Assembly (NCBI GenBank): GCA_003156715.1
Contig: PMHO01000038.1
Coordinates: 21,891 to 61,717 of the forward strand
Direction: 5' to 3'
Length of the DNA stretch: 39,827 nucleotides
Origin: Vulcanimicrobiota bacterium
GTDB taxonomy: Bacteria; Vulcanimicrobiota; Vulcanimicrobiia; Vulcanimicrobiales; Vulcanimicrobiaceae
The notes below the pieces were generated by a model, which saw nothing but the letters and a program-made list of their open reading frames with translations, had not been told where the DNA came from and searched no databases. Positions within the stretch are counted from its first letter, which is position 1. The number at the start of each line of letters is the position of its first letter. The translations under genes were made by a program, and so were the position numbers. Shown one piece after another: positions 1,529 to 24,138 of this stretch.

Positions 1529-2712
1529 GCGGCGCCGGGCCTTGCCGCATCTTCCTTGTAGCGCTGGGCGCCGACGGCGACGGAGCGGCCGCGCGACTGC
1601 AGACGGCCCTCGAGAAGGCGACGATCGATGCGACGTATCGTTCGGATTCTGCGGGCGCACGGGAGTCGGCTGCAGCGTTGGGCGGCGCACGGGACGTTCC
1701 GGTCCTGGTCGATCCGCGTCTGCGCGATCTGGACGCGACGCGTGGCGAATCGGTCGCCGGCGCTCTCGAACGCGCGTGGCCTGCCTTTTGCGAGCTGGCC
1801 CGCGCACACCAAGAAGGGACGGTTCTGGTCGTCAGCCACCCTGCGATCGTACAGGCCCTGCTGTGCTCCGTAACGGAGGCGGGCGAACCCAACTATCAGC
1901 GTTTTGCCGTAAGGCCGCTGGGTCTGACGATGGTGGAGGTCGGAACCGACGGGCGCGGCGTTTTGCGCGCGCTAAACGCGAACCTCGACCCGAATGCGAT
2001 CGCGCGAAAGGCACCGGCCACGCGCGTGCTAATGATCCGCCACGGGCACGCGATGAGCGTTGAAAAAGGCGCCCCGGCGTACAGCCACAACCCCATACCG
2101 CTGAGCCGGCTGGGAGAGGAACAGGCGATGCGGGTGGCAGCAGCCCTGAGCACCGTCCAGGTCGACGGCATTTTCAGCTCGGATATCGTGCGAGCGCGGC
2201 AGACGGCGGAATTCTGCGGACGCGCTCTTGGGCTGGAAGTCGTAACCGACCGTAGCCTGCGCGAGCTTGCGCTCGGCGAATTTGAAGGAATGACTCTCGA
2301 GCGCGTCCATGCCTCCCATCCGGCGTTCATCCCGTGGCTCGAGGTCGTCTTTCGAAACCGTTTCCCCTCGGCTGACTTCCATCACCCCGCCGACCTGCGC
2401 TTCCCGAACGGGCAAAGCGTGCTCGACGTCCATGACAGCTCGCTGGCGGGCGTTCTTCGCATCCTCGAGACCGAACGCGGACGAACGATCCTCCTCGTTT
2501 CGCACGGCTGGGTTCTGCAGCCGCTGATCTGTCACATCGTTGGCGCCGATCCGCAGGCATACTATCGCTTCACCCTTCCGACCGCTACCGTAGCGATGGC
2601 GGAGGTGGAAGCCGACGGTCGCGGCGTACTCGAAATCTTCAACGGGGGCGTCGCCCTCGAGGACCTGCCAAAGCTCACCGGCGCCGATGGGAGACTTGCC
2701 GATGTCCGCTGA
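1525..2712 (+). CDS. Tandem histidine-phosphatase (phosphoglycerate-mutase superfamily) protein. The N-terminal repeat is degenerate and the C-terminal repeat is catalytically intact.
   Basis: The second half has RVLMIRHGHAMS (the RHG motif), SSDIVRARQTAE and LLVSHGWVLQPLI. The first half starts CRIFLVALGADGDG, so it has no RHG, but it keeps LVVSHPAIVQALL. The start overlaps the upstream stop as ATGA at 1525-1528. Confidence 0.8.
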   Translation: MSGAGPCRIFLVALGADGDGAAARLQTALEKATIDATYRSDSAGARESAAALGGARDVPVLVDPRLRDLDATRGESVAGALERAWPAFCELARAHQEGTVLVVSHPAIVQALLCSVTEAGEPNYQRFAVRPLGLTMVEVGTDGRGVLRALNANLDPNAIARKAPATRVLMIRHGHAMSVEKGAPAYSHNPIPLSRLGEEQAMRVAAALSTVQVDGIFSSDIVRARQTAEFCGRALGLEVVTDRSLRELALGEFEGMTLERVHASHPAFIPWLEVVFRNRFPSADFHHPADLRFPNGQSVLDVHDSSLAGVLRILETERGRTILLVSHGWVLQPLICHIVGADPQAYYRFTLPTATVAMAEVEADGRGVLEIFNGGVALEDLPKLTGADGRLADVR

Positions 2713-3331
2713 CGTAAGCGACGAGAAGACCTACGCGGTTCTCACCGCCATCTTGCTCAAGAAAGTGAGCGACGCGAGCGCGCTGTCGGAGGCGACGGGA
2801 CTGCCACTCGACGATACCGGGCGCATCCTGGGCGAGCTCGAGAAGAGGCAAGCCGTTTTCTCCATGAACTCGAGCGTCATGGCGACCGAAAGCGGGACGG
2901 CGCTCGTCAAGGAGATTGCGGCACGCAACTACGGCGAACTGCGAGGCGACCCCGAACTCGAGCGCTGGCACGCGCGCTTCGAGCCGCTCAACCGGCAGTT
3001 CCTGAGCGCCGTCACCGCGTGGCAGACCGTCGATGTCGGTGGTACGAAACTGAGCAACGATCACAGCGACAGCGAATACGACGACAAGGTACGCTCGCGC
3101 CTCGATGGCCTCGTCAATAAGATGAGCCACCTGCTCGAGGAGATCGGCGCCAAGGTCCCACGCTTGCTGCGCTATCGCGACCGGCTAAACGGTGCGCTCG
3201 ACAAGAGCTATGCGGGCGACTCGCGATTCATCTCCGACGTGCGCGTCGATTCCTTGCACACCGTCTGGTTCGAGATGCACGAAGACGTTCTGCTGGTGCT
3301 GGGTAAGGAACGGACCGATGCCGGCGGCTGA
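2687..3331 (+). CDS. Hypothetical protein, about 210 aa; the start may instead be ATG 2702
   Basis: It overlaps the end of the phosphatase gene by 11-26 nt and the start of the PPDK-like gene by 14 nt, which suggests translational coupling. The N-terminus (TYAVLTAILLKKVSDASALSEATGLPLDDTGRILGELEKRQ) looks winged-helix-like, and I recognise no catalytic motif. Confidence 0.5.
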   Translation: MGDLPMSADVSDEKTYAVLTAILLKKVSDASALSEATGLPLDDTGRILGELEKRQAVFSMNSSVMATESGTALVKEIAARNYGELRGDPELERWHARFEPLNRQFLSAVTAWQTVDVGGTKLSNDHSDSEYDDKVRSRLDGLVNKMSHLLEEIGAKVPRLLRYRDRLNGALDKSYAGDSRFISDVRVDSLHTVWFEMHEDVLLVLGKERTDAGG

Positions 3332-5888
3332 CGCGCCGCCGGTCGCGCCGGACCAGCAGCAGCCGGCGCGCGTGCTGACCTTCGAAGCGGGAGACCACCA
3401 CAACGTCGACCTGCTCGGCGGAAAGGGCGCGGGGCTGGTGCGCATGACGGCGGCCGGTTTACCCGTGCCGCCGGGCTTCATCATCACGACCGAAGTTTGT
3501 CGCGAGCGACAACGTGAGGGCCGCTTGCCGTCCGATCTGCTCGACGAGATCGCTCGGTACATGCGGGTGCTCGAAGGACGAACCGGCCGAGGTTTCGGCC
3601 ATGGCCCGGCACCGCTGCTCGTTTCGGTCCGTTCGGGCGCGCCCGTCTCGATGCCAGGCATGATGGAAACGATCCTGAACCTCGGCCTCAACGCGCAAAC
3701 CGCCGAGGCGCTGGCGCGCGAGACGGGCGATCCGCTCTTTTCAGCGACCGTTTTCGTGCGCTTCATGCGCATGTACGGCGAGATCGTCCTCGGCGCAACC
3801 GGCGAGGCAGTCGATCGTGCGGCCGCGCCGCTGCTGGCGACGTTGCGTGACCGTCCCGATGCTGTCTCGATGCGGGCGCTTTCCGATGCCTGCCAGGCCG
3901 CGTTGCGCGAGGACTGCGGCGACGAGGTTCCCGCGGATGCCTTCGAGCAAGTCGCCGGGGCAATCGGCGCCGTTTTCGATTCGTGGAACTCGCGGCGCGC
4001 GATCACCTACCGTAATTTCCACGGGATCGCGCACGATCTCGGAACGGCGGTCGTGGTGCAGGCCATGGTGTTCGGCAATCTCGGTACGCCGTCCGGGACC
4101 GGCGTCGCGTTCTCGCGCGATCCGCTGAGCGGCGAACCGACCCTGTTCGGCGAGTTCCTCGAAGGCGGCCAAGGTGAAGACGTCGTGGCGGGAACGCTAA
4201 CGCCGCAGAAGATTGCGCAGGCCGCCGCGCGCTTTCCGGAACTGTTCGCCGAGTTCGAGGGCGTCGCGCGCCGCCTCGAAGAGCTGTACCGCGACGTCGT
4301 CGACATTGAATTCACCGTCGAGCGCGGGAAACTGTTCATCCTACAGGTGCGATCGGCGAAGCGCACGGCCCAGGCGGCACTGCGCATTGCGGCCGACTTC
4401 CTTACGGAAATGCGCTTGAGCGAGGCCGACGCGCTGCGCAGCGTTACGCTTGCGCAGGTGCGACAGGTCGGGCGGCCTGGTTTCGAACCCGCCGCGGTCG
4501 CGCGCGCAAAGTCCGAAGGAAGGCTGCTCGGCTCCGGCATCGGCGCGTCGCCTGGACAAGTGAGCGGCCGGGTCGCCCTCGATCCCGACCGGGCCGAAGC
4601 TGCAGCAAAAGGATCGAACGGGGCGGGCTCGATCATCTTAGTGCGCCCGACGACGAGCCCGCACGACCTTCACGGCATGATCGCGGCGCGAGGCATCCTG
4701 ACCTCACTGGGAGGCGCGACCAGTCACGCCGCCGTGGTCGCGCGCGCCCTCAACAAGGCGTGCGTCGTCGGCTGCGACCGTTTGACGATCGACGCGGAAA
4801 AGCGCCGTTTCCGCCTCGACCAAACATGGTTCGACGAGGGGGACGAAATCTCGATCGACGGCGCCACGGGCGAACTTTTTGCGGGCGCTCTCCCGGTCGT
4901 CCCGGGCGGCGCGTCGACGCCGCAGATCGAGGCATTGCTGGCCGTTGCCGATCGGCTCGCGCGCTGCCGCATCTTCGCCCGAGTCGCAACCACCGCTCAG
5001 ATCGCGACCGCGCTTGCGTGTGGCGCGACGGGCGTCGCGATCCGCTTGGGCGACGTCTTGACGACGTCCGGCAAGCTCGGCGAATTTATCGACGCGGCGC
5101 TGGCACAACGCGAGGGCAGTTCGGCCGTCGTCCAGATGGCGCAAACGCTCGCGGATTTGCTCGCGCCGCTGCTGGCCGCGTCCGGCCACGCCGACTTCGC
5201 GCTGCGCGCGGTCGATCTCGCTACCGGAGAGGCCACCGAACTCTTGCGAACGGTCGATCTGTTCGCACGCGAGCCGCGGCTGGCGCTGCCCCTGGGCGTA
5301 CCGGAGTTGATCGAGGTGCAGGTGCGGGCCATGGCGCTTGCGATCGAACGCGCGGGCTACGGCGGCAGCGCGCAGTTCATCGTACGGCATATCAACGATC
5401 CAAGCGAAATGCGCGAGCTGCGGCGCATCGCAAGCGCTGCCTCGGGGAGCGGGCGCGCCGCCATCGCGGCAGGCGCCACAATGACGAGCGTTCACGGCGC
5501 CCTGCTCGCATCCGAAATCGGCCGGCATGCCGACGTGCTCTGGCTCGAAGCGCGCAGCCTGATCGCCAACGCCCACGGTTACCCTTCCACGCTGATGCTG
5601 ACCGCCGATCCGCTCGACGACTACCTGCGCCGGGGCCTCTTGAGCGCGGACCCGCGCACGACCCTCGACGAATCGATGACGCGGCTTTTTCTCAGCGTGG
5701 CGGGCGCTGCCGTGAGCAACCCGGAATGTCGCATCGGCATCCGCCTTTCGGGGCAGCTTTCGGAGCAAATGGTGGCCACTCTCTTCCGCAGCGGTTTCCG
5801 TTCCTTCATCGTCGATCCGGACGAGGTTCGCGTTGCCCGCGTCGCGCTCGGACGCGAAGCCGCCGCGATGAACCCGGCGAACGGGTAA
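3318..5888 (+). CDS. Pyruvate,phosphate dikinase-like PEP-utilising enzyme. It has a canonical N-terminal ATP-grasp domain and phospho-His swivel domain, and a divergent C-terminal domain.
   Basis: Three PPDK hallmarks are present. LLGGKGAGLVRMTAAGLPVPPGFIITTEVC and PLLVSVRSGAPVSMPGMMETILNLGLN are PPDK_N hallmarks. GSIILVRPTTSPHDLHGMIAARGILTSLGGATSHAAVVARALNKACVVGC is the swivel domain with the catalytic His. The ~380-aa C-terminus lacks an obvious GTNDLTQ/Cys motif. The start is ATG 3318, and track residues 3192-3317 are not protein-like. Confidence 0.8.
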   Translation: MPAADAPPVAPDQQQPARVLTFEAGDHHNVDLLGGKGAGLVRMTAAGLPVPPGFIITTEVCRERQREGRLPSDLLDEIARYMRVLEGRTGRGFGHGPAPLLVSVRSGAPVSMPGMMETILNLGLNAQTAEALARETGDPLFSATVFVRFMRMYGEIVLGATGEAVDRAAAPLLATLRDRPDAVSMRALSDACQAALREDCGDEVPADAFEQVAGAIGAVFDSWNSRRAITYRNFHGIAHDLGTAVVVQAMVFGNLGTPSGTGVAFSRDPLSGEPTLFGEFLEGGQGEDVVAGTLTPQKIAQAAARFPELFAEFEGVARRLEELYRDVVDIEFTVERGKLFILQVRSAKRTAQAALRIAADFLTEMRLSEADALRSVTLAQVRQVGRPGFEPAAVARAKSEGRLLGSGIGASPGQVSGRVALDPDRAEAAAKGSNGAGSIILVRPTTSPHDLHGMIAARGILTSLGGATSHAAVVARALNKACVVGCDRLTIDAEKRRFRLDQTWFDEGDEISIDGATGELFAGALPVVPGGASTPQIEALLAVADRLARCRIFARVATTAQIATALACGATGVAIRLGDVLTTSGKLGEFIDAALAQREGSSAVVQMAQTLADLLAPLLAASGHADFALRAVDLATGEATELLRTVDLFAREPRLALPLGVPELIEVQVRAMALAIERAGYGGSAQFIVRHINDPSEMRELRRIASAASGSGRAAIAAGATMTSVHGALLASEIGRHADVLWLEARSLIANAHGYPSTLMLTADPLDDYLRRGLLSADPRTTLDESMTRLFLSVAGAAVSNPECRIGIRLSGQLSEQMVATLFRSGFRSFIVDPDEVRVARVALGREAAAMNPANG

Positions 5889-5894
5889 CGCGGC

Positions 5895-8177
5895 GTGCTC
5901 GTGCCGCAAGCGCTTCGTGCGCGTCCCAAACCCTCCCAGCCGGCCCGCATGTCGGCCGCCTCGATCGAACGCGCCTTGCGCAGGTTGGCGGTTGCGGCAG
6001 AGCGGGGCTACCATGTGTTGCTTAGCGAGGCGGAAGAAATATTTGCTGGACTGACCGGCTCGAAGCGCGCGCGCGTTTTTCTCTACGCCGGCGGCTGTTG
6101 GCGCGCGTGGGATTCGATTGAAAATGCGGCAGCAGACAACGCCGCGACGTGGCCGCAGTCCGAGCCGTCGACCTGGAACCGAATCGCCGAACTCAACGGC
6201 GACCAGTTCGTCCCGGTGCGCGCCGGGAGCCTTGCCGTGTTGCTCGAGGGGCCGCGCGGCGGTAAGGAGGGCGAGCACGTCGCGGGCATTGCCGCGGCTG
6301 CCTTCGACCTAGCGCTGACCGCTTGCCAGCGCCGTTCGCTCTCGAGCGACGAGAGCGACGAGATCGGCGTCATGCAGCGCCTGGCGATGCGCATTCTCAA
6401 GAGCCGCAACCTGCAAGAGATCCTGCTCCTGATCACGCACGAAACCAAGCAGCTGCTGGGGGCCGACATCTGCGGCATCATGCTGCGCGAAGGCGATGCG
6501 GTCGTGATGCAGCGCTGCGTCGGAAACTTTTCGGCCGATACGGCATCGCTGCGCATGCAGGCGGGTCAAGGCCTTGCCGGGCGCGTGTTCGAGACGAAGA
6601 AACCTTGTCACGTCGAGCACTACCTCGAGAGCAACCTGATCAGCAAAGACTTCATGCACCTGGCGCGCATCGAGATGGTGCGCTCGGCGCTCGGCGCACC
6701 GCTGCTCTCGCAGGACGACGCAATCGGCGTACTCGAGGTCTGGCGCCGCCAAATCTCGAAGTTCGACGAGCGCGACACGCGGCGGCTCGTCATGCTCGCG
6801 AACTTGACCTCGGTCGCGATCGAGAATGCCCGCCTCTCGCAAAGCCTCGAAAGCAACATGCTCGAGCTAGCCGCAGCCAACGCAGCGTTGATGGCGCGCT
6901 ACGAAGTGGTCCGCGCTTCGGCGGGCTTTCAACACGAACTGATCCGCTTGCTGCTCGAAGGCAAGAGCCTCGGCACCATCGCCGCCAAAGCGGCAGAGCA
7001 CGTCGATGCCGAGGTGCTGATCCTCGACGCGAACTTCGAGATCGAGGGTGCCTCGCCGGCGTGCGAGCGACTTTCCGACCGGCTGCGCGAACAGATCAAA
7101 GCGGCGCTGCGCAAGGCGCCTTCGAACGGTCCCGAGACGACCGCCGCAATGCTGGAAGGAAAGCCGGCGCTGCTCCAACCGGTCGTCGCCGCAACCGAGC
7201 GGCTCGGTGTGGTCGTCCTTCGACGGCAAACGCCGCTCGATCAAAACGCGCAGCTTGCGCTCAGCCAAATCTGCATCGTGACATCGCTGCACCTGATCGA
7301 GCGCCGCGCCGCCGCGCGCGCCCGGGCGGAGACGCTCGGTGCCGTCTTGTGGGACCTCTTGGAAGGGACCGATGACGTCCGGCGCTCGGCTGCGGCCCGC
7401 GCCCGCGACCTGCGCGTCGACCTCGAGGGAGGCCACCGCGTGTTCCTGTGCGCCCTCGACGGCATCGAACAGCAGGCCAATAGCGAGGGCTGGAGCCCGG
7501 GCGAAATCAGCGTACGGCGCAGACGCATCGCACAGACCTACCGCACGGTCGAAGACCTGGAAAAATCGGTGAAGCTCTCGGGCGCGCGCGCCAACTTCGT
7601 GGCGCTGGTTTGCGGGGGCGAGGCGGTTCGCGATGCGGAGCGTTTGGGAGCCAAGCTTGCGGCTGCCATCGCCGCGAACGTCACGGGACTCTCGGTCCAG
7701 GTCGGCATCAGCACGCCGTGTATCGGCCCGGCCTCTTTGAGCGCGGCGTATCGTGAAGCCAAAATATCGCTCGAGGTGGCCCGCCAGCGCGGCCGCGTCG
7801 CGGCGGCCTGTTACGAGGATGCAGGGATCGTCGGCATGCTGCTGAGCTTGCGCGCGGAGGCTGACGTCAAGAAAGTCGTGCACACGATCTTCGGGCCGCT
7901 GCTCGAGGAGAAAGCGCAGACCCGCGACCTGCTGTTCGGAACGCTCAAAGCCTTTTTCGAGCTAAACTGCTCGCGCCGAGCCGCCGCGAAAAAGCTTCGC
8001 GTCCACGAAAAGACGATCGTTTACCGGCTGGCGAAGATCGAATCGCTCACGGGTCTCGACTTCAGCAAGCACGAGAAGCGTCTCTTGGCGGACATCGCCT
8101 TGCAGATGTACGGCATGTCGGCGGAACGCGTCGCTTCAGGGCTTCCTTGGATCGATAACGACCTTCATCGCCCGTAA
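5895..8177 (+). CDS. Transcriptional regulator with a central GAF domain and a C-terminal PucR/CdaR-type HTH
   Basis: The C-terminus FGTLKAFFELNCSRRAAAKKLRVHEKTIVYRLAKIESLTG is a PucR-type HTH. The central region (MQRLAMRILKSRNLQEILLLITHETKQLLGADICGIMLREGDAVVM...) is GAF-like. Its 3' end overlaps the convergent ADH gene by 42 bp. Confidence 0.8.
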   Translation: MLVPQALRARPKPSQPARMSAASIERALRRLAVAAERGYHVLLSEAEEIFAGLTGSKRARVFLYAGGCWRAWDSIENAAADNAATWPQSEPSTWNRIAELNGDQFVPVRAGSLAVLLEGPRGGKEGEHVAGIAAAAFDLALTACQRRSLSSDESDEIGVMQRLAMRILKSRNLQEILLLITHETKQLLGADICGIMLREGDAVVMQRCVGNFSADTASLRMQAGQGLAGRVFETKKPCHVEHYLESNLISKDFMHLARIEMVRSALGAPLLSQDDAIGVLEVWRRQISKFDERDTRRLVMLANLTSVAIENARLSQSLESNMLELAAANAALMARYEVVRASAGFQHELIRLLLEGKSLGTIAAKAAEHVDAEVLILDANFEIEGASPACERLSDRLREQIKAALRKAPSNGPETTAAMLEGKPALLQPVVAATERLGVVVLRRQTPLDQNAQLALSQICIVTSLHLIERRAAARARAETLGAVLWDLLEGTDDVRRSAAARARDLRVDLEGGHRVFLCALDGIEQQANSEGWSPGEISVRRRRIAQTYRTVEDLEKSVKLSGARANFVALVCGGEAVRDAERLGAKLAAAIAANVTGLSVQVGISTPCIGPASLSAAYREAKISLEVARQRGRVAAACYEDAGIVGMLLSLRAEADVKKVVHTIFGPLLEEKAQTRDLLFGTLKAFFELNCSRRAAAKKLRVHEKTIVYRLAKIESLTGLDFSKHEKRLLADIALQMYGMSAERVASGLPWIDNDLHRP

Positions 8178-9182
8178 CGCCGCAAGCTCGGCGTATGCGC
8201 CCGGTGCTCCCTCAAACGACACCCGCGCGCCGACCACATCGCTCGGATCGAGCGCGCGGGTCCCCAAGAGCGCGAGCAAGGTGCGGCGCACGCGGATCGC
8301 GTCGCCGATTGCAAACGAGAACGAGATCTCGTCCGCGAAGCATTTCGCGAGCGGCAGCTCCCAGCGCTCGGCTGCGTGTGCGCCGACTGAAACGATCCGG
8401 CCGCGACGCCGGACGAGCTGCAACGCGCTCGTAAGCGCCGCATCGCGTCCGACCGCTTCGACGACCACGTCGGCACCGTCGCCGTCGGTCAGCTCTCGAA
8501 TTAGGCGCTCGGCATCCTCCGGCGCCGCGGCAAGCGCACCGTGCGCTTCTGCGAAGCGGCGCCGCTCTGCGCTCGGTTCGACCACGACGACAATGCCGGC
8601 GCCGGCCGCCTGGGCGCACATGCTGGCGAGCTGACCGACCGCGCCGCCGCCGATGACGGCCAACACTTCGCCCGGCGCAAGCCCGCTGCGCTCGATCGCA
8701 ACCCAGCCGGTCGGCAAATTATCGGCCAGCAGAATGGCGCTTTCATCCGAGCAGGCCGCGGGAACGCGCATGAGCGCGACGTCCGCAAACGGCACGCGGA
8801 CGAGCTCCGCTTGAGCGCCTGACAGCGGCGGACCGAAGGCTGCGCCCGTACCAAAAAAAGCGCGTTGCGCGCACTCCCAATGATCGCCGCGGTCGCACCA
8901 ACGGCATGCTCCGCAGGCGACGAAATCCGAGGCGAAGACGCGCTCGCCCGGCCTCACGTGCTGCACCGCCGAGCCGACTTCGACGACGCTGCCGACGAAT
9001 TCGTGTCCCAGCACGAGGCCCGGCTCGACACCGGGAAAGTCGCCGCCGATCAGATGCAGGTCCGTTCCGCAAATACCGCACAGGCTCGGGCGCACGAGCG
9101 CGTCGGTTGGGTCGACCAACGCCGGCTCGCGCACATCGTCGAGCCGAACCGAGCGCGAACCAGCGAAGACCACCGCGCGCAT
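8136..9182 (-). CDS. Zn-dependent alcohol dehydrogenase (MDR superfamily)
   Basis: It has the catalytic-Zn motif SLCGICGTDLHLIGGDF...GHEFVGSVVEVG, the structural-Zn Cys cluster CGACRWCDRGDHWEC, and the GxGxxG motif VIGGGAVGQL. It is the last gene of the - strand BMC operon, starting 2 nt after the MDH stop. Confidence 0.85.
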   Translation of the reverse strand: MRAVVFAGSRSVRLDDVREPALVDPTDALVRPSLCGICGTDLHLIGGDFPGVEPGLVLGHEFVGSVVEVGSAVQHVRPGERVFASDFVACGACRWCDRGDHWECAQRAFFGTGAAFGPPLSGAQAELVRVPFADVALMRVPAACSDESAILLADNLPTGWVAIERSGLAPGEVLAVIGGGAVGQLASMCAQAAGAGIVVVVEPSAERRRFAEAHGALAAAPEDAERLIRELTDGDGADVVVEAVGRDAALTSALQLVRRRGRIVSVGAHAAERWELPLAKCFADEISFSFAIGDAIRVRRTLLALLGTRALDPSDVVGARVSFEGAPGAYAELAALRAMKVVIDPRKP

Positions 9183-9184
9183 GC

Positions 9185-10576
9185 TTAGCGCGGCATGGCC
9201 TTGATGCGCTCGTCGATCGCCTTGGCGGACGCTGCCAGCTCCGCACGCTCGGCGGGGCGCAGGGCGAGGTCGACGATCCGGCGGACGCCCGTACGGCCGA
9301 GCAGCACCGGAAGACCAACGCGCGTGTCGATTAACCCATAGGCGCCGCGCGAGCGAACGCAGGCTGGGATCACTTCGTCGGAGTCGTCGACGATCGCCTG
9401 TACTTGTTTGGAAATCGCCGAGCCCGGCGAGAAAAACGCGCTGCCGCTTTGCAGCAGTTTCGTAACCTCGGCACCGGACTCGCGCGTGCGACGGACGATG
9501 CCGTCGAGCGTCGCGCTATCGAGCAGTTGCTCGAGCGGAACGTTGTTCGCCGTCGCTTGACTCAGTGGAATCACCATTTCCGCGCCGTGGCTTCCCAGGA
9601 CGAGCGCGCGAACGTCCTGAGCGCGAACGGCACCGGTAAGTCCGACCAGGGCGCGGAAGCGCGCGGTGTCGAGCACGCCGCCCATCCCGACGACGCGCTC
9701 GGGCGGAAAAGCCGTCAGCTCGCAAACGAGCTGCGTCATCTCTTCGAGGGGATTCGTGACGACAACGACGACCGCGTTCGGAGCAAGCTCTTTGATCGAG
9801 GGCGCAATCGAGCGTACGATCTCGGAGTTGGCCGCCGTCAAGTCGGTGCGCGACATGCCGGGCTTGCGCGGCCGCCCCGCCGTTATCACGATCACATCCG
9901 AACCCGCCACGTCGGCCATGCGGTGACTGCCTTCAACGCGCGTATCGAAGCCGCGCAGCCCGGCGCTGTGCCACATGTCGAGCGCGAGACCTTCGGCCAG
10001 CCCCTCGACGACGTCGATCAGCCGCACGCGCGCGAACCGGTCCGCTAAGGCGAGCGCGAAACCGGCACTCGCGCCAACGTGACCGGCACCGACGACCGTC
10101 ACCTGCGGGCGCGCAAGCGCCGCATCCGTCTGCCCGGCGCGCACGTTGCGCTCGCCCGCAGAGCCATATGCGCTGCGACGGTAGAGGGCACCCGAGCGCG
10201 GCAAGGCCGCGCTGCCGCTCGGGGCGGCGGCCTGCGCGACGCGTGGAAGTCCCGGGCCGACGCGCGCCGGGCCTGCCGGAGTCGTGCGCGCAGGTTGTTG
10301 CAGCACGCCGCGCTGCGCAGGCTGCGAAACGGGTCGCTGTACGAGCGCCGGGCTGACGTACGACGTCATGGTGCGTTGCGGCGGACCGCTCGCGCCGTCG
10401 CGTTCGATCGTGATGCCGAGCTCTTTCGCGCGGTCGAGCGCGAGCGGCGTCACCACGTCGAGCGGGCCGATGCGCAAGCTCCCCGAGGCCTGCTCCACGT
10501 CGCGAAGCGTGAAGACGCTTCTCGGCGTTTCCTCCTTTGACGACGCGCGACCGTTCGGAACGCCGGCCCCCTTCAC
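9185..10576 (-). CDS. mdh: LDH-like malate dehydrogenase carrying a ~150-aa N-terminal extension (a small folded motif followed by a Pro/Ala/Gln-rich linker)
   Basis: The C-terminal ~310 aa match LDH/MDH: VTVVGAGHVGASAGFALAL, DVIVITAGRPRKPGMSRTDL and VLGSHGAEMVIP. The Arg in the GRPRKPG specificity position points to malate rather than lactate. The N-terminus (MKGAGVPNGRASSKEETPRSVFTLRDVEQASGSLRIGPLDVVTPLALDRAKELGITIERDG, then a low-complexity PAQ-rich stretch) is absent from ordinary MDHs. The start overlaps the BMC-T stop by 4 nt. Confidence 0.85.
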   Translation of the reverse strand: MKGAGVPNGRASSKEETPRSVFTLRDVEQASGSLRIGPLDVVTPLALDRAKELGITIERDGASGPPQRTMTSYVSPALVQRPVSQPAQRGVLQQPARTTPAGPARVGPGLPRVAQAAAPSGSAALPRSGALYRRSAYGSAGERNVRAGQTDAALARPQVTVVGAGHVGASAGFALALADRFARVRLIDVVEGLAEGLALDMWHSAGLRGFDTRVEGSHRMADVAGSDVIVITAGRPRKPGMSRTDLTAANSEIVRSIAPSIKELAPNAVVVVVTNPLEEMTQLVCELTAFPPERVVGMGGVLDTARFRALVGLTGAVRAQDVRALVLGSHGAEMVIPLSQATANNVPLEQLLDSATLDGIVRRTRESGAEVTKLLQSGSAFFSPGSAISKQVQAIVDDSDEVIPACVRSRGAYGLIDTRVGLPVLLGRTGVRRIVDLALRPAERAELAASAKAIDERIKAMPR

Positions 10577-11193
10577 TCGCGTCCCTCGAGAGCGGCCAGG
10601 GCGGCGACGGCGGCGTCGCGCGCGGTCCGCACGTCGCTCTCGCTTCCGGAAACGAACAGCCGGCCGAAGCGGCCGACGGCGCGCACCTCGATCAGGCTGA
10701 TCTCGGCCGTTTTCTCCGCCTCGTTGGCTGCCAGCGTGACGTAGGCCGCGGGCGAAACCTCGAGAACGAACAAGCTGCTGCGCGGCAAGAGCAGATTTCC
10801 CTTGCGCCAGCGATTGATCAGCTGCGCTTGATACGGGTTCACGTTGGTCACGAATTGCGAGGACGCCACTTTCGGCTTGAGGCGATCGGCTTCGCCGATC
10901 CCGAGGTACTCGAGCACCGCTTGCCCGGCGGCGATGACTTCGGCTTGCGTTCGCGAGTGCACCTCGAGCAACCCGAATTCGCGCTCGACGATCTGAAGGG
11001 CGGGGCGAACGTCGGCCGCTTTGAGGGCCACGTCCGCGCAGCGGAAGATTTCGTTACCCGGGGCAACCTCGATGAACAACTCCGACATTCCGGCCACCGG
11101 GACGTCGCCTTGGCAAGTGGCCGCAACGTGTGCCGCCGCTTGCGGCTGCATGCGATCGATGAACGCGTACGTGCGCAACTCGACGCCGGCCAT
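10573..11193 (-). CDS. BMC-T shell protein (tandem, permuted BMC domains; EutL/PduB-like)
   Basis: From the internal ATG 11193 there are two BMC-like repeats: ...MSELFIEVAPGNEIFRCADVALKAADVRPALQIVEREFGLLEVHS and ...SLFVLEVSPAAYVTLAANEAEKTAEISLIEVRAVGRFGRLFVSG. There is a GAGGGG RBS about 11 nt upstream. The track ORF 10573..11454 over-extends by 87 codons. Confidence 0.72.
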   Translation of the reverse strand: MAGVELRTYAFIDRMQPQAAAHVAATCQGDVPVAGMSELFIEVAPGNEIFRCADVALKAADVRPALQIVEREFGLLEVHSRTQAEVIAAGQAVLEYLGIGEADRLKPKVASSQFVTNVNPYQAQLINRWRKGNLLLPRSSLFVLEVSPAAYVTLAANEAEKTAEISLIEVRAVGRFGRLFVSGSESDVRTARDAAVAALAALEGRE

Positions 11194-11230: not shown

Positions 11231-12631
11231 TCACTTGAGATCGTACAGCGAGCGCCACGGCCGGATCTCGTGTGCGATGCGCTTGATGTTGATGAGATGC
11301 AGCGGCGTAACGTTGTCGGAGACGATCGATCCGCTCCAGGTTCCGGTGCCCAGCATGAACGACGGATCCGTGGCAGCGCTGAAGCCCATTCCGCCGAACA
11401 AGCTCGGCGTATTGCAAAGAATGCGTGCGGCCGGGAGGGACGCGAACTTGGCAATCACCGCGTCGTCGCCCGCGTGGAGGCCGAGCGTGTGGCCGGCGCC
11501 GCCGAAATCGAGAACCTGCCGGCAGCGTTCGTAAGCGGCGTCCGCGTTCTTGGCGCGATAGAACGACAGAACCGGGCCGAGAATCTCACGCGACAACGGG
11601 GTTTGCGGCCCGACGTCGTGCAGCTCGGCGGCGAGCACGCGGCAATTCGCTTCGACGCGCGCCCCGATCCGGTCCGCCAGAACGCGCGCCGATTGTCCGA
11701 CCGACTGCGGCCGCAGATCGCCGCCCTCGGTAAAGAGAAGCGACGCCAAGCGCTGCGCCTCCTCCGCACCAAGAAAGACGGTGCCCTGCGCTTCGAAAGC
11801 CGTAAAGGCGGCGTCGGCGATAGGCTCGTCGAGGACGACCGATTGTTCGGCGACGCAGGCCGTTCCGTTGTCGAAGGCTTTCGAAGTGACGATCATCGTC
11901 GCCGCTTCGAGCAGGTCCGGGACGGAGCGATCGATGTATGCCGGCACGTTGCCGGGCCCGACTGCCAGCGTCGGTTTACCAGAAGAATAGGCAGCGCGCA
12001 CCATGCCGGCGCCGCCGGTTGCCAGGACCATCGAGACGGCCGGATGGCGCATCAACTCCTGCGTCGACTCGAGCGTAACGCTCTCCAGACACGAGATCAG
12101 GCCGCGCGGCGCCCCAGCCCGCTCGGCCGCGCGGGCCATGATCTCGGCCGTGCGCGCGCAACAGCGCACCGCGCGCGGATGCGGCGCGCAAACGATGGCA
12201 TTCCCCGACTTGACCGCCGCCAGGCATTTGAACAGGACGGTCGAGGTTGGATTGGTGACGGGGATGATGGCGGCCAAAACGCCCATCGGTGAGCCGACGG
12301 CCGCCATCCGGTTCGGCTCGTCGACCCACAGAACACCGAGCGTGCGCATCTCCAGCATCGCTTGGGCCACGAAGCGCGCGTTGTAAAGATTCTTGTAGAC
12401 CTTGTCGGCGACGACGCCGTAGCCGGTCTCCTCGACGGTGAGCCGGGCGAGTTCTTCGGCCGCGGCCGCCCCGGCGTTTGCCATTGCGCTCACGATGCGG
12501 TCGACCACCGCTTGCGTGGCGCCGTCGAACGACTCGAAGGCGGCCCGTGCGTCGCGCGCTTTCGCGCGCGCTTCAGCGAGCGCGATCAGGTCGGAATCGG
12601 CTTCGAGCGCAGCCATCGCGCCCCCAGGCAC
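11231..12631 (-). CDS. CoA-acylating aldehyde dehydrogenase (PduP/EutE family)
   Basis: The ALDH fold is clear. VGPGNVPAYIDRS and TSKAFDNGTACVAEQSVV match the PduP/EutE catalytic-Cys motif, and the C-terminus (...VTPLHLINIKRIAH) is EutE-like. A GTG start at 12631 sits 9 nt downstream of a GGAGGA RBS. No long N- or C-terminal extension is evident. Confidence 0.9.
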   Translation of the reverse strand: MPGGAMAALEADSDLIALAEARAKARDARAAFESFDGATQAVVDRIVSAMANAGAAAAEELARLTVEETGYGVVADKVYKNLYNARFVAQAMLEMRTLGVLWVDEPNRMAAVGSPMGVLAAIIPVTNPTSTVLFKCLAAVKSGNAIVCAPHPRAVRCCARTAEIMARAAERAGAPRGLISCLESVTLESTQELMRHPAVSMVLATGGAGMVRAAYSSGKPTLAVGPGNVPAYIDRSVPDLLEAATMIVTSKAFDNGTACVAEQSVVLDEPIADAAFTAFEAQGTVFLGAEEAQRLASLLFTEGGDLRPQSVGQSARVLADRIGARVEANCRVLAAELHDVGPQTPLSREILGPVLSFYRAKNADAAYERCRQVLDFGGAGHTLGLHAGDDAVIAKFASLPAARILCNTPSLFGGMGFSAATDPSFMLGTGTWSGSIVSDNVTPLHLINIKRIAHEIRPWRSLYDLK

Positions 12632-12661: not shown

Positions 12662-12964
12662 CTACTTGAGCTTGCCGAGAATCAGGTCCACGTCTTCGTG
12701 GGGCCGTGGGATCACATGCACCGAGATCACCTCGCCGACCTTGCCGGCCGCAGCCGCGCCGGCATCGGTCGCGGCCTTGACCGCCCCGACGTCGCCGCGG
12801 ACCATGACGGTGACGAGGCCACCCCCGATTTGCTCTCGGCCCATCAGCCGGACGTTGGCTGCTTTGACCATCGAATCGGCCGCCTCGATCGCTGCGACGA
12901 GGCCCTTTGTTTCGATGAGACCGAGCGCGCCGCCCGGGGACTCCGAGCTACCTGGTGCTGCCAT
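12662..12964 (-). CDS. BMC-H shell protein (single BMC domain; PduA/EutM/CcmK-like)
   Basis: [77 protein letters not shown] is a canonical BMC domain. An AAAGGGGGG RBS lies upstream. Confidence 0.9.
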
Positions 12965-12988: not shown

Positions 12989-13294
12989 CTACTTGACGAA
13001 CGTGGTGCGCGAATCGAGCCGGGCACTGTCGACGATGGCGACGATGGCGGCATCGGTCGGAACGCGCGCCGTGCCCTCGTCGACGCGCGCGGCGCCGCCG
13101 TGCGCGACCAAAACGATCTCGCCCTCGCCGACGCCGACCAGGTCGATGGCGGCATACACCGCGGCGCTTGCATCGCCGTCGCCGCCAAGCGGATCGCGCG
13201 GATCGACCTCTCGAACCAACAAAAGTTTGTAGCTCGACAGACCGTCGGCTTTGACCGTGGCGACGACGTTTCCGCACACCCGCCCTAGGCGCAT
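12989..13294 (-). CDS. BMC-P vertex protein (EutN/CcmL/PduN family)
   Basis: From the internal ATG 13294 the sequence runs MRLGRVCGNVVATVKADGLSSYKLLLVREVDP...AAIDLVGVGEGEIVLVAHGGAAR...AAIVAIVDS. An AAAGGG RBS lies upstream, and it is the first gene of the - strand operon. The track ORF 12989..13429 over-extends by 45 codons. Confidence 0.85.
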   Translation of the reverse strand: MRLGRVCGNVVATVKADGLSSYKLLLVREVDPRDPLGGDGDASAAVYAAIDLVGVGEGEIVLVAHGGAARVDEGTARVPTDAAIVAIVDSARLDSRTTFVK

Positions 13295-14497: not shown

Positions 14498-15487
14498 ATG
14501 CCGCCGCGCGCGATCCTCTTCGACTTCGACGGCACCCTCGTTCAAACGCGCGAGGCTTCCTGGGAGCTGTTCGCTCAAACCAATCGCGAGTTTGGCCTGG
14601 GCATCGAGGATCGCGACGCTTTTTTCGATCTCTTTAACGACAACTTTTTCCGGGCTCTCGCCGCCCGTTGCCCCGACAAGACGAAGCTCGATGCGGCCAA
14701 GCACCACTTTCTCGAGCTCCTTCGCACGCAGTACACGCCGCCGCTGGTACCGGGCCTGGCCGACGTGGTGCGAACCCTGGCGAGCCGCTGCACGCTCGTC
14801 GTCCTCTCCACCAACACGATCGCAACGATTCGACGCGTGCTGAGCGAAGCCGGCGTGGCGACGTGTTTCGCGCACGTCTTCTCGGGCGACGTGGAACCCG
14901 ACAAGAGCGTCAGCATGCGGCGCTTCCTCGCCGACGCAGGTTACGGCGTCGGACGGCGCTGCTCGCCTGCGTACGACGAGCTCAACGGCGCGCGCGACGA
15001 AGGCGGCGTAGCACTGATTACCGACACGGCAGGCGACGTGAAGGAGGCGTTGGCTTGCGGCGTTCGCGCCATCGGCGTCGCGTGGGGCATGCACGGCGAA
15101 TCCGAGCTGCTTGCAGCCGGCGCCGAAACGGTGGCGGTTTGGCCGCAAGAGCTCATCGCTTGGCTTGCGTCGGGCGAGCCCGCGCCTGGTGCGACGGCCT
15201 GTTTGCTTCCTCCCAAGGGCGCCTGCGCATGCGAGGGCGCTACCTCGACACCGTGCGCTTGTCCGCACGAACCGGCCGCTACGGCAGCCGAGCGCGTTGC
15301 CGCCGCCGCGCGCGTGCGCCGCGCGCGCAACTCCGAGCGCTTGGAGGAGGCTCGCCGCACCCGGTTTTGGGATCGCAGCGAATCCGTGCTTCGCTCGGAG
15401 CCGCCGCCGGCCGTGCCGCGCGCGCCACCGCCGTCAGAACCCGAACTGCTGGCGACGCTGCGGCGTCTGCGTCACATCCAGGTTTGA
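14498..15487 (+). CDS. HAD-superfamily phosphatase (phosphoglycolate-phosphatase-like) with a ~100-aa C-terminal tail
   Basis: The N-terminus ILFDFDGTLV is HAD motif I, and later motifs are VVLSTN and GDV...D. The tail has a Cys cluster (CLLPPKGACACEGATSTPCACPHEP), an Ala/Arg-rich segment, a Pro-rich segment (EPPPAVPRAPPPSEPE) and ends LLATLRRLRHIQV. It starts 4 nt after the upstream stop. Confidence 0.8.
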   Translation: MPPRAILFDFDGTLVQTREASWELFAQTNREFGLGIEDRDAFFDLFNDNFFRALAARCPDKTKLDAAKHHFLELLRTQYTPPLVPGLADVVRTLASRCTLVVLSTNTIATIRRVLSEAGVATCFAHVFSGDVEPDKSVSMRRFLADAGYGVGRRCSPAYDELNGARDEGGVALITDTAGDVKEALACGVRAIGVAWGMHGESELLAAGAETVAVWPQELIAWLASGEPAPGATACLLPPKGACACEGATSTPCACPHEPAATAAERVAAAARVRRARNSERLEEARRTRFWDRSESVLRSEPPPAVPRAPPPSEPELLATLRRLRHIQV

Positions 15488-15518: not shown

Positions 15519-15935
15519 ATGACAGTTTTAGCCGAAGGTTACAACGCCTTCGAAACACCCAAATCGCCGACCGGCGTCGTCAAGTACCTCGGTGACCCGA
15601 CTGCGGTTATCGCGCTGATCTCGAGCGGCAAACTGCAAGACCACATCATCCTGGCGCAGGGCGGAACGACGACCTTCCTGTCCCCGGCGCTCACCATGGG
15701 ATGCCTCGGCGTCATCACGCTCTCGGGTGCGCCCGAGTCCCATCTCGGCATCCTGTCGCGCGAGTTTCAAATCCCGTGCATCATGACCGCCTATCAGCCG
15801 AACACCGAAACCCGCTACGTCACGGGCGGCAACAACGACGAGCACTTCAAGCAAATGATTGCAGCTCTCGACGGGAAGAAAGTCCGTCTCAAGTGCGACC
15901 ATCACGACGTCGCGCAGGTACTCCTCGAAGACTGA
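15519..15935 (+). CDS. Stand-alone PEP-utilising-enzyme mobile (phospho-histidine swivel) domain protein, 138 aa
   Basis: ATG 15519 follows a GAGGAGGA RBS. The sequence LQDHIILAQGGTTTFLSPALTMGCLGVITLSGAPESHLGILSREFQIPCIM resembles the GG.TSHAAI.ARE.GIP swivel motif, with a candidate catalytic His in ESHLG. Confidence 0.7.
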   Translation: MTVLAEGYNAFETPKSPTGVVKYLGDPTAVIALISSGKLQDHIILAQGGTTTFLSPALTMGCLGVITLSGAPESHLGILSREFQIPCIMTAYQPNTETRYVTGGNNDEHFKQMIAALDGKKVRLKCDHHDVAQVLLED

Positions 15936-15986: not shown

Positions 15987-17408
15987 ATGATAGATCATAT
16001 GGCCGGTTATTTGAAGCGGTACGAACCCGACGACAACGGGCTGCGCTTCCAGGACCTGGTCTACCAAGGCAACTTCAAGGGGATGGAGCCCGTTCCCGAC
16101 GGGATTCTCGGCGACAAGATCATGCGCCAGCGCGCAAAGAGCAAGGTCCTCGAGAAAGTCAGCCACCAGGACGTGCTCAGAGACAACTTCACGATCGACG
16201 AGCTCAACGATCTCAACAACTACCTGGCCTGGAACATTTGGGACGTGCTCGTCATGCGCGCGACCGAGGGCGTGTCGGGCATGATCCCGCGCCAGGAATA
16301 CGAGATCTTGGCGTTTATGCACGAGTTCTACCGCTGGCCGGAGATCCTGCGCATGACCAACGATGAGGTTGGAGCACAAGCGATCATCGACATCGGCAAG
16401 AGCGCCCGGCGCGAGATCGGAACGAAGGTGAACTGCGTTCACGACTGGTGCATCGGCGCGGTCGGATTCGGCATGGGCCGCTGCGGACTGCTCGCCCTCG
16501 AAGTCATCAAACCGCAAGATTTCGTCGAGGAAAGCAACATCATCCTCAAGTTCATGCAGCGCGTTCTGTGGGGCAAGCGCCAAGACGGCTACATCCTCAA
16601 CTCGCAAGATCGCTACCGCTGCTTGATCCACGACCAAGATTTCCTGGACACGCTGACGCCGCAGCTCGAGGAGATCGAGGCAGGCAGTGAAAAGCACGAC
16701 GCTTTCGTCCGCTTCAACGCGACCGCCGAGCTGCTCGCCTTCCTCGACCACTACGACTGCCGCCTCGGTCTAGGGGACACCGGGCCCTATCCACTTCCGG
16801 ACGGAAAGGTCTTGATCGTTCGCGACCTTTTCTGCAACGAAGAAGTCTACCACTGGAGCGACGTGTGCGATCACGAGAAGGTCCCGCACGCGTACACGAT
16901 GCTGGTCGTCCTGGATGCGGCCAAGATGGGGCTCGAGGAAATTCGGGTCAACGACATCTCGACGACCTTCACCCGGCCCAAGAACTACATCCCGTATATC
17001 ACCGCAGGCGCGGTGTTCGTGCGCGAGAAGTGGAACACGCCCATGTCCGAGGTGTACTCCGTTCCCATCAAGGATCTCGCACCGCGGCTGCATGGCGTGC
17101 AGCAAGCCACGCTCAAGCTCTACACCAAGACCTCGCGCATGTCGCGCCGCCAGTTGATCACCAACGGAATGTACGATTACTACATCGAGATGATCTTACC
17201 CCACTTGCGACTGGCCGGAACGTACGAGAAGGCGTGCAAGGAGTACGACTTCTGGGAGATCGACCATCGCATCTCGGATTACTACTACGACATCACCAAG
17301 CGCGGCTTCGCACAGGCAACCGTGCCGCAGAAGATCTTCTCGGGCGAAGGCTACCTGCCGTTCCCGGACAACGTCGATCCGCGGCGTTCGAAGTACTTCT
17401 GGGATTAA
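15987..17408 (+). CDS. Hypothetical protein (473 aa), Cys/His-containing, with Asp/Glu/Lys/Tyr-rich composition; function unknown
   Basis: It has an AGAGAGG RBS. This is a long clean ORF whose amino-acid composition and apparently lower GC differ from its Ala/Arg-rich neighbours. It lies between the swivel-domain gene and the second BMC-H. I recognise no family motif. Confidence 0.6.
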   Translation: MIDHMAGYLKRYEPDDNGLRFQDLVYQGNFKGMEPVPDGILGDKIMRQRAKSKVLEKVSHQDVLRDNFTIDELNDLNNYLAWNIWDVLVMRATEGVSGMIPRQEYEILAFMHEFYRWPEILRMTNDEVGAQAIIDIGKSARREIGTKVNCVHDWCIGAVGFGMGRCGLLALEVIKPQDFVEESNIILKFMQRVLWGKRQDGYILNSQDRYRCLIHDQDFLDTLTPQLEEIEAGSEKHDAFVRFNATAELLAFLDHYDCRLGLGDTGPYPLPDGKVLIVRDLFCNEEVYHWSDVCDHEKVPHAYTMLVVLDAAKMGLEEIRVNDISTTFTRPKNYIPYITAGAVFVREKWNTPMSEVYSVPIKDLAPRLHGVQQATLKLYTKTSRMSRRQLITNGMYDYYIEMILPHLRLAGTYEKACKEYDFWEIDHRISDYYYDITKRGFAQATVPQKIFSGEGYLPFPDNVDPRRSKYFWD

Positions 17409-17477: not shown

Positions 17478-17774
17478 ATGATTGAGACGTTTGGGGTTGA
17501 GGCTCTGGGGCTGGTCGAGACCTTCGGCCTGGCAGCGGCCGTGGAGGCGGCCGATGCGATGGTGAAGACCGCGAGCGTCCGCGTCATTACCAAGCAGCAG
17601 CCAGGCGGCGGGCTCATCGCCATCATGGTGACCGGGGAAACGAGCGCCGTGCAGTCCGCGGTCGATGCCGGCGTCGCAGCGGCCGAGCGCGTCGGCCGCG
17701 TCGTCAGCCGGCGCGTCATCGCCAGACCTGACGCAGACATTCTCGACCTGCTCGAGCGGCCGCCGGTGCGTTGA
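17478..17774 (+). CDS. BMC-H shell protein, second copy (satellite)
   Basis: From the internal ATG 17478 the sequence runs MIETFGVEALGLVETFGLAAAVEAADAMVKTASVRVITKQQPGGGLIAIMVTGETSAVQSAVDAGVAAAERVGRVVSRRVIARP, a canonical BMC domain. Confidence 0.85.
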   Translation: MIETFGVEALGLVETFGLAAAVEAADAMVKTASVRVITKQQPGGGLIAIMVTGETSAVQSAVDAGVAAAERVGRVVSRRVIARPDADILDLLERPPVR

Positions 17775-24026: not shown

Positions 24027-24138
24027 GCAATCCTCTTCGAACCCTGGTGAGGTAGTCCGTGATTCATCAGGACAACCGCTTTTACGACCGTGCCGGTTTC
24101 CGAAATCGTGGATCGCATCGTTGTTTCAGCAGGCTTTC

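Follow-up and report, generated by a model that had tools for sequence, protein, structure and literature searches.

The question raised by this locus is why a malate dehydrogenase, encoded in the middle of a bacterial microcompartment (BMC) operon, should carry 155 residues ahead of its catalytic core. The locus lies in a stretch of 39,827 nucleotides from a Vulcanimicrobiota metagenome contig (PMHO01000038.1; hereafter the window), in which the gene occupies 9185..10576 on the minus strand as a full open reading frame (ORF) of 463 aa plus stop. We consider it probable, from sequence comparison and structure prediction, that its product is the lactate/malate dehydrogenase (LDH/MDH)-family enzyme of a MIC1-type BMC (a metabolosome with incomplete core), that a mini-domain near its N-terminus docks it to the shell, and that it likely serves in NAD+ recycling. 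The original prediction had placed a malate dehydrogenase (MDH) with a BMC-targeting extension inside a shell operon. The setting holds: the gene lies between those for BMC-T and a Zn-dependent alcohol dehydrogenase (Zn-ADH), in a window with four shell genes.

We assign the core, residues 156-463 (9188..10111, minus strand), to the NAD-dependent LDH-like (type 3) malate dehydrogenases, with every catalytic residue present. Pfam places Ldh_1_N at residues 158-297 (E 2.9e-35) and Ldh_1_C at residues 302-459 (E 1.1e-21). The protein passes the NCBIfam subfamily model NF004863 'malate dehydrogenase' (329 bits, cut-off 283) and scores below the cut-off of the equivalog TIGR01763 (313 against 351.85 bits). 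Its best solved relatives are the tetrameric MDHs of Chlorobium and Chloroflexus (1guz and 1uxh; E ~1e-78, residues 158-461 aligned), whose catalytic and specificity residues are identical. Besides a GAGHVG motif, the core has D188 as the NAD-specifying Asp after beta-2, and R237, R243, D303, R306 and H330 in the places of the classical Arg102, Arg109, Asp168, Arg171 and His195; all six are invariant in an alignment of 76 homologues. Position 102 is the Gln/Arg lactate-malate switch of the LDH/MDH superfamily. Within ITAGRPRKPGMSRTDL of the window MDH, R237 aligns with the Arg of 'GLPRKPGMTRED' in 1guz, and the LDH-like core with its specificity Arg was correctly read at the outset. The housekeeping enzymes of the Chlorobium/Chloroflexus type differ in being ~310 aa long, without an N-terminal extension, and in lacking the signatures of the BMC clade (NPLEEMT, GSHG(A/P)EMV).

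What, then, is the extension? Alignments, first of 20 and later of 76 homologues, and an AlphaFold2 (AF2) model (mean predicted local distance difference test score, pLDDT, 83.8), divide the 155 residues into five parts, all on the minus strand. A 19-aa leader (residues 1-19, 10520..10576) has no counterpart in homologues. The mini-domain follows (residues 20-60, 10397..10519), similar to the EutQ N-terminus and the predicted shell-docking module, with the homologue consensus SVITAxDVEKAxGVLxIGxxDVxTPLARDRAKELGVRIER. Its TPLA.DRA.E core is conserved: T43, P44, L45, A46 and A50 are invariant among the 76 sequences, and D48, R49 and E52 are kept in at least 90%. AF2 gives residues 20-60 a pLDDT of 95-97 in the full-length model and 91.6 when modelled alone, and residues 64-139 less than 50; the predicted secondary structure of the mini-domain is beta-alpha-beta-beta-alpha-beta, with helices at residues 24-29 and 44-53. 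Downstream are a disordered linker rich in Pro, Ala, Gln, Gly and Ser (residues 61-126, 10199..10396; P+A+Q+G+S 67%), a conserved RSGALYRRSA motif (residues 127-136, 10169..10198; R133 and R134 invariant, Y132 at least 90%) and a second, variable linker (residues 137-155, 10112..10168). Across the family, between 73 and 159 residues separate TPLA from the Rossmann glycine motif, a spread typical of a tether. No helices are predicted in residues 61-155, where GALYRR is the only conserved element. Of 120 family members 110 have this motif, which is found in MDH fusions alone, ~25 aa ahead of the Rossmann fold. Docking of GALYRR on the MDH core was considered; in the AF2 monomer the motif is left disordered. 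An inter-subunit arm and a short linear binding motif are both conceivable.

The layout first proposed, about 60 structured and 90 low-complexity residues, thus came close, but the folded part is ~40 aa behind a leader of 19 aa, and the GALYRR motif had been missed. The architecture of an encapsulation extension, a small folded element before a flexible linker, is indeed present. It is not that of a canonical encapsulation peptide (EP), a single amphipathic alpha-helix of ~18 residues, which we ruled out because the extension is a compact beta-alpha-beta mini-domain, a 40-aa alpha/beta unit built around TPLA.DRA.E. What the two have in common is a terminal position, a poorly conserved linker to the enzyme and confinement to BMC-associated paralogues, as in PduP, PduD, EutC and EutE. 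Scans with Pfam and NCBIfam returned no family for the extension, only sub-threshold E3_binding and Kisspeptin noise, and no Pfam cupin or EutQ model matches it. The Pfam threshold for a peripheral-subunit-binding domain (E3_binding, PF02817) is not reached: homologues score 17.4 and 13.7 bits, short of the 23.7 required, and the window sequence gives no match. The MDH is the only ORF of the window that carries the mini-domain, and no second copy of it or of GALYRR is found anywhere else in the window.

The mini-domain does have a relative among BMC proteins. Its profile aligns to residues 4-46 of E. coli EutQ (hhalign E 3.7e-4, probability 36%), and when the 25-kb E. coli eut region was translated in six frames and searched with an iterated profile from 254 domain instances, this segment was the top match (E 2.5e-5). 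The MDH-derived profile also matches the N-termini of EutQ-cupin proteins in two Chloroflexota loci (L060, L073) and of three PF06249 representatives. Since the aligned region is residues 4-46, the homology is with the EutQ N-terminus and not with the cupin, and we regard the mini-domain as a homologue of the H1/H2 region. A resemblance to EutQ N-termini had been suggested in the original prediction, which called for a profile or structure check of the extension; the profile matches now bear it out, and the two helices predicted by AF2 fit the description of H1/H2. Recent work in Salmonella has dissected this part of EutQ (Sci Adv 2025, PMC12487888). EutQ(1-99) is enough to direct sfGFP to Eut compartments; EutQ without residues 9-41 (H1/H2) goes to the cargo aggregate, and EutQ without residues 62-99 (H3/H4) remains on shell assemblies. 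Additionally, EPs touch only residues 63-99 by nuclear magnetic resonance, and full-length EutQ interacts with EutM and EutL by microscale thermophoresis. In Salmonella, H1/H2 is the shell-associating part of EutQ (PMC12487888).

The MDH domain and EutQ H1/H2 share a homologous sequence (ITxxDVxxA...vl...iiTPxARexAxxLGxxI), two short helices, a terminal position followed by a flexible region, and a place in a BMC operon. They differ in what comes after and in what surrounds them: EutQ continues with the EP-binding helices H3/H4 and then an acetate-kinase cupin, neither of which the MDH protein has, and the shell partners are EutM/EutL in the Eut system as opposed to BMC-H and a CcmP-like BMC-Tdp in the window locus. 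Together, the homology to EutQ and the BMC context support the targeting interpretation, as does the near-exclusive occurrence of the domain in BMC loci described below; the BMC-targeting reading that had been put forward thus gains sequence-level support. With a broadened profile, the N-terminus of EutT (EGAEIHLPADSRLTPSARE; E. coli eutT, locus L004, 18503-19306, minus strand) appeared as a second, weak match within the eut region (E 0.018).

Is the mini-domain confined to BMC loci? The pattern [VLI]TPLA[RA]DRA[KRT] was scanned across 185,579 species genomes, giving 183 confirmed sites, and 80 loci were fetched. BMC shell genes lie within 10 kb in 76 of these, and three of the four shell-less loci are contigs of 1.6-11 kb. 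MDH fusions account for 28 loci, all MIC1-like in context; a check for extended MDHs outside BMC loci found 27 of them beside shell genes, the exception being L055, discussed further on. The architecture of the window MDH is found again in more than 100 homologues of 400-485 aa and is thus not a chance arrangement. An exhaustive profile search of 1.84 billion cluster representatives (E <= 1e-3) retrieved 399 that carry the mini-domain, nearly always at an extreme terminus. When 125 carriers were scanned with Pfam, 17 matched Ldh_1_N, three EutQ and two ADC, with one carrier each for a PduL-type phosphotransacylase (PTAC), E1_dh, RpiB, KARI_N, a methyltransferase, Cob_adeno_trans and Flavoprotein, and the majority had no Pfam domain. 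The domain is N-terminal on the EutQ cupin, on RpiB-type isomerases (Caldithrix) and on SPU6-type proteins of ~130-200 aa; in SnoaL-like and flavoprotein-like proteins it forms the extreme C-terminus. A word-indexed homologue search with the 42-aa profile gave only fragments of 27-81 aa, uninformative on fusion partners. The mini-domain is essentially restricted to BMC loci and portable between enzymes. Its terminal position, promiscuous BMC-enzyme partners and restriction to BMC loci are together the hallmark of a module for assembly or targeting.

Several of the other carriers deserve a description of their own. The RpiB-type isomerases of Caldithrix carry the domain N-terminally (L046 1044-1643; L065 8361-8990), and in P0343, P0315 and P0317 it is fused to a PduL phosphotransacylase (C-terminal region), a 2-oxoacid dehydrogenase E1 component and an acetoacetate decarboxylase. 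Proteins of ~130-200 aa combine an N-terminal EP-like amphipathic helix (ELRGLVREVLKEAM), a middle domain of the form 'VETVRI..DAEL.AFV.RL...LRF.L' and the EutQ-N-like domain at the C-terminal extreme. They are found at about position 9000-10100 of aldehyde dehydrogenase-plus-shell loci that lack an MDH, both in Alphaproteobacteria (Aestuariivirga and others; L030, L034, L036-L038, L040, L044, L050, L058, L063) and in Actinomycetota (L016, L017, L033, L041, L042, L047, L048, L053, L054, L057, L071, L077, L079 and others). These three-part small proteins look like dedicated shell-cargo adapters.

A further clue comes from the way in which the gene is joined to its neighbour. In 27 of 28 loci the stop of the BMC-Tdp gene overlaps or abuts the MDH start: the Met of the homologous MDH overlaps the BMC-T stop in 17 of the 28 related genome loci, with a gap of 11-28 nt in 10 more. 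The window MDH has only one canonical start, a GTG at 10576 that shares bases with the BMC-T stop (GTGA); at the other end of the gene, the MDH stop overlaps the Zn-ADH start. A strong AAGGAGG Shine-Dalgarno-like site lies 8 nt upstream of codon 19 (AGA), at the position of the homologues' ATG (Met). Since the homologues' Met overlaps or adjoins the BMC-T stop, the window copy looks like the same coupled arrangement with an insertion of 57 nt, which encodes the 19-aa leader. Gene calls of the Joint Genome Institute (JGI) contain the identical 463-aa product on 14 metagenome contigs.

To which kind of BMC does the enzyme belong? The minus-strand operon reads BMC-P, BMC-H, acylating aldehyde dehydrogenase (AldDH), BMC-Tdp, MDH, Zn-ADH, and the four shell genes of the window are one BMC-P, two BMC-H and one BMC-Tdp. 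On the minus strand these are BMC-P (EutN/CcmL; 12989..13294, a JGI call of 101 aa), the first BMC-H (12662..12964), the EutE-like AldDH (11231..12631), the CcmP/CsoS1D-like BMC-Tdp of 206 aa, whose stop overlaps the MDH start (10573..11193), and, past the MDH, the Zn-ADH without an extension (8136..9182), whose start overlaps the MDH stop. Divergently, on the plus strand, lie genes for DUF7064/7065, a HAD hydrolase (14498..15487), a phosphoenolpyruvate (PEP)-utiliser mobile-domain protein, a 473-aa protein, the second BMC-H (17478..17774), a GntR regulator and a Rieske oxygenase. The other flank holds genes for a GAF/PucR-type regulator (5949..8177, plus strand), a PPDK-like protein, a His-phosphatase and a beta-hydroxyacid-dehydrogenase-like protein. 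The regulator's place beside the MDH/ADH pair is conserved in MIC1 loci. No PTAC was found in the window by phmmer with EutD (Pta) and PduL sequences or among the JGI Pfam calls.

According to Axen 2014 (PMC4207490), MIC1 comprises a dehydrogenase, an AldDH and two putative alcohol dehydrogenases, one with lactate/malate dehydrogenase pfams and one zinc-binding. The window has the shell set, the LDH/MDH-pfam protein with its extension, the Zn-ADH, the HAD hydrolase, a phosphatase and an incomplete core without PTAC or an obvious signature enzyme. This gene set fits both the account of MIC1 given by Axen 2014 and, in Sutter 2021 (PMC8217296), the notes and model list for MIC1/MIC2, which makes the window a new member, from a metagenome, of a BMC type already catalogued. 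Loci of the same organisation are present in Roseiarcus, Bradyrhizobium, Variovorax, Acidimicrobiales and others; among the genome loci recovered is that of Roseiarcus fermentans DSM 24875, itself a catalogued MIC1. Compared with its nearest species genomes the window copy is ~53% (MDH) and ~73% (AldDH) identical, and it comes from an uncultured peat or soil organism. It differs from other MIC1 loci in the extra 19-aa leader and in the absence of a MreB/EutJ-like gene, present between AldDH and BMC-T in L085 and L086. Divergent homologues P0112 and P0119 occur in the same locus type, with a MreB/FtsA-like gene. For MIC1 the MreB/EutJ-like gene is accessory, not defining.

The canonical EP-like helix of the window locus belongs to the HAD hydrolase and not to the MDH. 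At its C-terminus the hydrolase has a P/A linker followed by an amphipathic helix (EPELLATLRRLRHIQV; the last 16 codons, ~15437-15484), and a similar helix closes its orthologues in ~25 MIC1 loci (for example ELMSSLQRILREG, LLLASLRRLR and DELLRSVLAAIG). With an EP-like helix on one protein and the mini-domain on another, MIC1 appears to use two encapsulation devices.

Other genes of the window can be described briefly. The 473-aa protein (15987-17408, plus strand) has no Pfam match, the PEP-utiliser mobile domain is a stand-alone protein of 138 aa (15519-15935, plus strand), the PPDK_N/PEP-utiliser protein spans 3192-5888 (plus strand) and the His-phosphatase 1525-2712 (plus strand). Conserved in MIC1, these four genes hint at phosphotransfer and phosphatase chemistry in the pathway. 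Strong AT-skew excursions occur at 24001-26000, 32001-33000 and 36001-37000; the first two correspond to ordinary permease genes of Liv-type ABC transporters, and the third to an ORF (35693-37270) without a Pfam match.

An MDH in a BMC is not in itself new, although the original prediction knew of no MDH as BMC cargo. LDH/MDH-family proteins are catalogued in MIC1, MIC2 and PVM loci (PMC4207490, PMC8217296), and such a protein is the predicted recycler of PVM compartments (PMC4207490). The hidden Markov model (HMM) list of Sutter 2021 (PMC8217296) includes HMM02866_2_mic12 for LDH/MDH and HMM13419hydrol_1_mic1 for the MIC1 HAD, and the MIC2 entry of its Supplementary Data 2 notes a BMC-specific EutQ-like extension of the LDH/MDH protein. 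The MIC1/MIC2 protein of the catalogues has the same extension as the window MDH, and the finding is therefore not novel in kind. The descriptions of the extension differ: ~70 aa and cupin-related in the catalogue, a 40-aa EutQ-N-terminus domain and a ~95-aa linker including the GALYRR motif here. Our literature searches returned no experimental paper on MIC1. The additions made here are modest: the extension is assigned to EutQ H1/H2 and not to the cupin, a domain, a tether and the GALYRR motif are told apart within it, a conserved coupling links the gene to that of BMC-Tdp, and there is evidence that the domain is a widely reused BMC module without a model.

How would such a protein work? 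The mini-domain probably docks on the inner (lumenal) face of the shell, as has been proposed for EutQ H1/H2 at the EutM/EutL interface. Its docking site could be the BMC-Tdp trimer or the interface of that trimer with BMC-H, as the tight and conserved coupling of the two genes may hint. The MDH, presumably a tetramer, would be picked up as the compartment assembles and kept close to the shell by flexible tethers of ~95 residues. Once inside, it would most likely re-oxidise the NADH produced by the co-encapsulated acylating AldDH, by reducing oxaloacetate or a similar anionic 2-oxo acid, and so take the role that PduQ and EutG play elsewhere. PvmO, PduQ, EutG and the window MDH are all NAD(H) dehydrogenases of metabolosome loci with a proposed part in regenerating NAD+ for the AldDH. 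PduQ and EutG differ from the window MDH in being Fe-ADHs, with the pathway aldehyde as the substrate they reduce; given its Arg-102, the MDH would need a separate anionic 2-oxo-acid co-substrate. PvmO has its own HMM in the Sutter list (HMM02866_1_pvmeut as against HMM02866_2_mic12).

With four docking domains per tetramer, and as the sole carrier of the domain in the locus, the MDH may also organise shell and cargo. A wider and more speculative proposal, possible but doubtful in its full extent, is that the EutQ-N-like unit of ~40 aa is a general, portable shell-docking domain of BMCs, one without a Pfam model, marking cargo at either terminus in MIC1/MIC2, EUT, SPU and RMM-like systems (on MDH, EutQ cupin, PduL, RpiB, ADC, E1 and dedicated adapter proteins) and distinct from EPs, and that in MIC1 the tetrameric MDH, as its only carrier, doubles as the shell-cargo organiser in the place of EutQ.

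Several points weigh against a shell-docked, NAD+-recycling MDH. The similarity to enterobacterial EutQ is modest, with E 0.43 against E. coli EutQ for the MDH-only profile before iteration and an hhalign probability of 36%. The interaction of EutQ H1/H2 with the shell is deduced from the phenotypes of deletions and from localisation, and not from binding seen directly with the region in isolation (PMC12487888). Moreover, MIC1 shells lack a EutL-type BMC-T. The MDH extension lacks the H3/H4 helices of EutQ, and the organiser role is not directly transferable; without these EP-binding helices a EutQ-like organiser role is therefore only a possibility. On the catalytic side, Arg-102 argues for a dicarboxylate or other anionic 2-oxo acid, not necessarily oxaloacetate. 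Finally, there is L055, a 14-kb contig of a Burkholderiales metagenome-assembled genome, in which an MDH with the extension has no shell genes within 5-8 kb. The MDH/Zn-ADH/PucR module is kept there, with TonB-receptor and FecCD genes upstream; the locus is weak evidence either way on BMC restriction. It could be a rearranged locus, a satellite locus or a mis-assembly.

A further point is the division of labour between the two dehydrogenases. Axen 2014 (PMC4207490) proposed a cofactor-recycling role and left undecided whether the MDH-like enzyme or the Zn-ADH is the recycler. A serious alternative, on balance the less likely one, would have the MDH act as a pathway enzyme on a 2-hydroxy- or 2-oxo-acid intermediate of the compartment while the Zn-ADH recycles NAD+; this concerns the role of the enzyme and leaves the extension as it is. 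The Zn-ADH is translationally coupled to the MDH, the TIGR01763 cut-off is missed, and the family has specific changes at NPLEEM and GSHG; besides the question left open in 2014, nearby hydroxy-acid dehydrogenases (NAD_binding_2, Ldh_2), kinase-like PEP-utilising proteins and phosphatases suggest hydroxy-acid or phospho-ester chemistry. Nonetheless, all substrate-binding residues of an MDH, Arg-102 included, are invariant, the recycler predicted for PVM compartments is an LDH/MDH-family protein, and the Zn-ADH has no detectable targeting extension. Of the two dehydrogenases, we take the MDH as the likelier encapsulated partner because only the MDH has a targeting-type extension; the Zn-ADH could still piggy-back.

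Considerably less likely is that the mini-domain is a cargo-cargo adaptor in the manner of a peripheral-subunit-binding domain, recruiting the AldDH or Zn-ADH so that the MDH is encapsulated by piggy-backing on an EP-bearing partner. The TPLA[RA]DRAKELG stretch of homologues (TPLALDRAKELG in the window) weakly matches Pfam E3_binding (E 0.005-0.08, below the cut-off), and two domain-bearing representatives match it too, but the E3_binding scores lie under the gathering threshold and cover one helix. The HAD hydrolase, with its conserved C-terminal EP-like helix, could be the primary shell-targeted cargo, and EutG is thought to be encapsulated by piggy-backing. The homologous segment of EutQ, however, associates with the shell and not with cargo, showing no chemical-shift change with EPs (PMC12487888), and the conserved overlap of the MDH gene is with the BMC-T gene and not with an enzyme gene.

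Shell docking also accounts better for the domain than the suggestion of Sutter 2021 (PMC8217296), in which a relative of the EutQ cupin would bind small molecules or have a regulatory part, sensing a pathway ligand. We consider this improbable. The catalogue's description of the extension as cupin-related speaks for it, but the aligned residues of EutQ lie upstream of its cupin (residues ~100-229), the Pfam models for cupin and EutQ do not match the extension, and the 40-aa beta-alpha-beta unit has, in the predicted structure, no obvious pocket. Furthermore, a domain that many unrelated enzymes and small non-enzymatic proteins of BMC loci carry at one end or the other follows the pattern of an assembly module, not of an allosteric one. 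That the whole extension is an annotation artefact is hardly credible: long spurious ORFs are common in high-GC genomes, residues 1-19 are not conserved, only the upstream GTG is a canonical start and the Shine-Dalgarno-like site precedes a non-start codon, but residues 20-60 and GALYRR are kept in more than 100 homologues from several phyla, AF2 confidence for residues 20-60 is ~95, and homologues begin at the domain with an ATG overlapping the BMC-T stop. An over-long ORF was accordingly rejected for residues 20-155; the artefact reading now concerns only the leader, residues 1-19.

Among the Proteobacteria and Actinomycetota of soil, compartments of the MIC1 and MIC2 types are widespread, and a counterpart of EutQ H1/H2 on their MDH offers a concrete and testable handle on how cargo is loaded into them. 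The reading of the extension as cupin-like and ligand-binding, taken from the catalogue, is corrected. The domain points to the MDH, and not the untagged Zn-ADH, as the enzyme tied to the shell. It also suggests a second, domain-type encapsulation tag for synthetic shells, beside the helical peptides.

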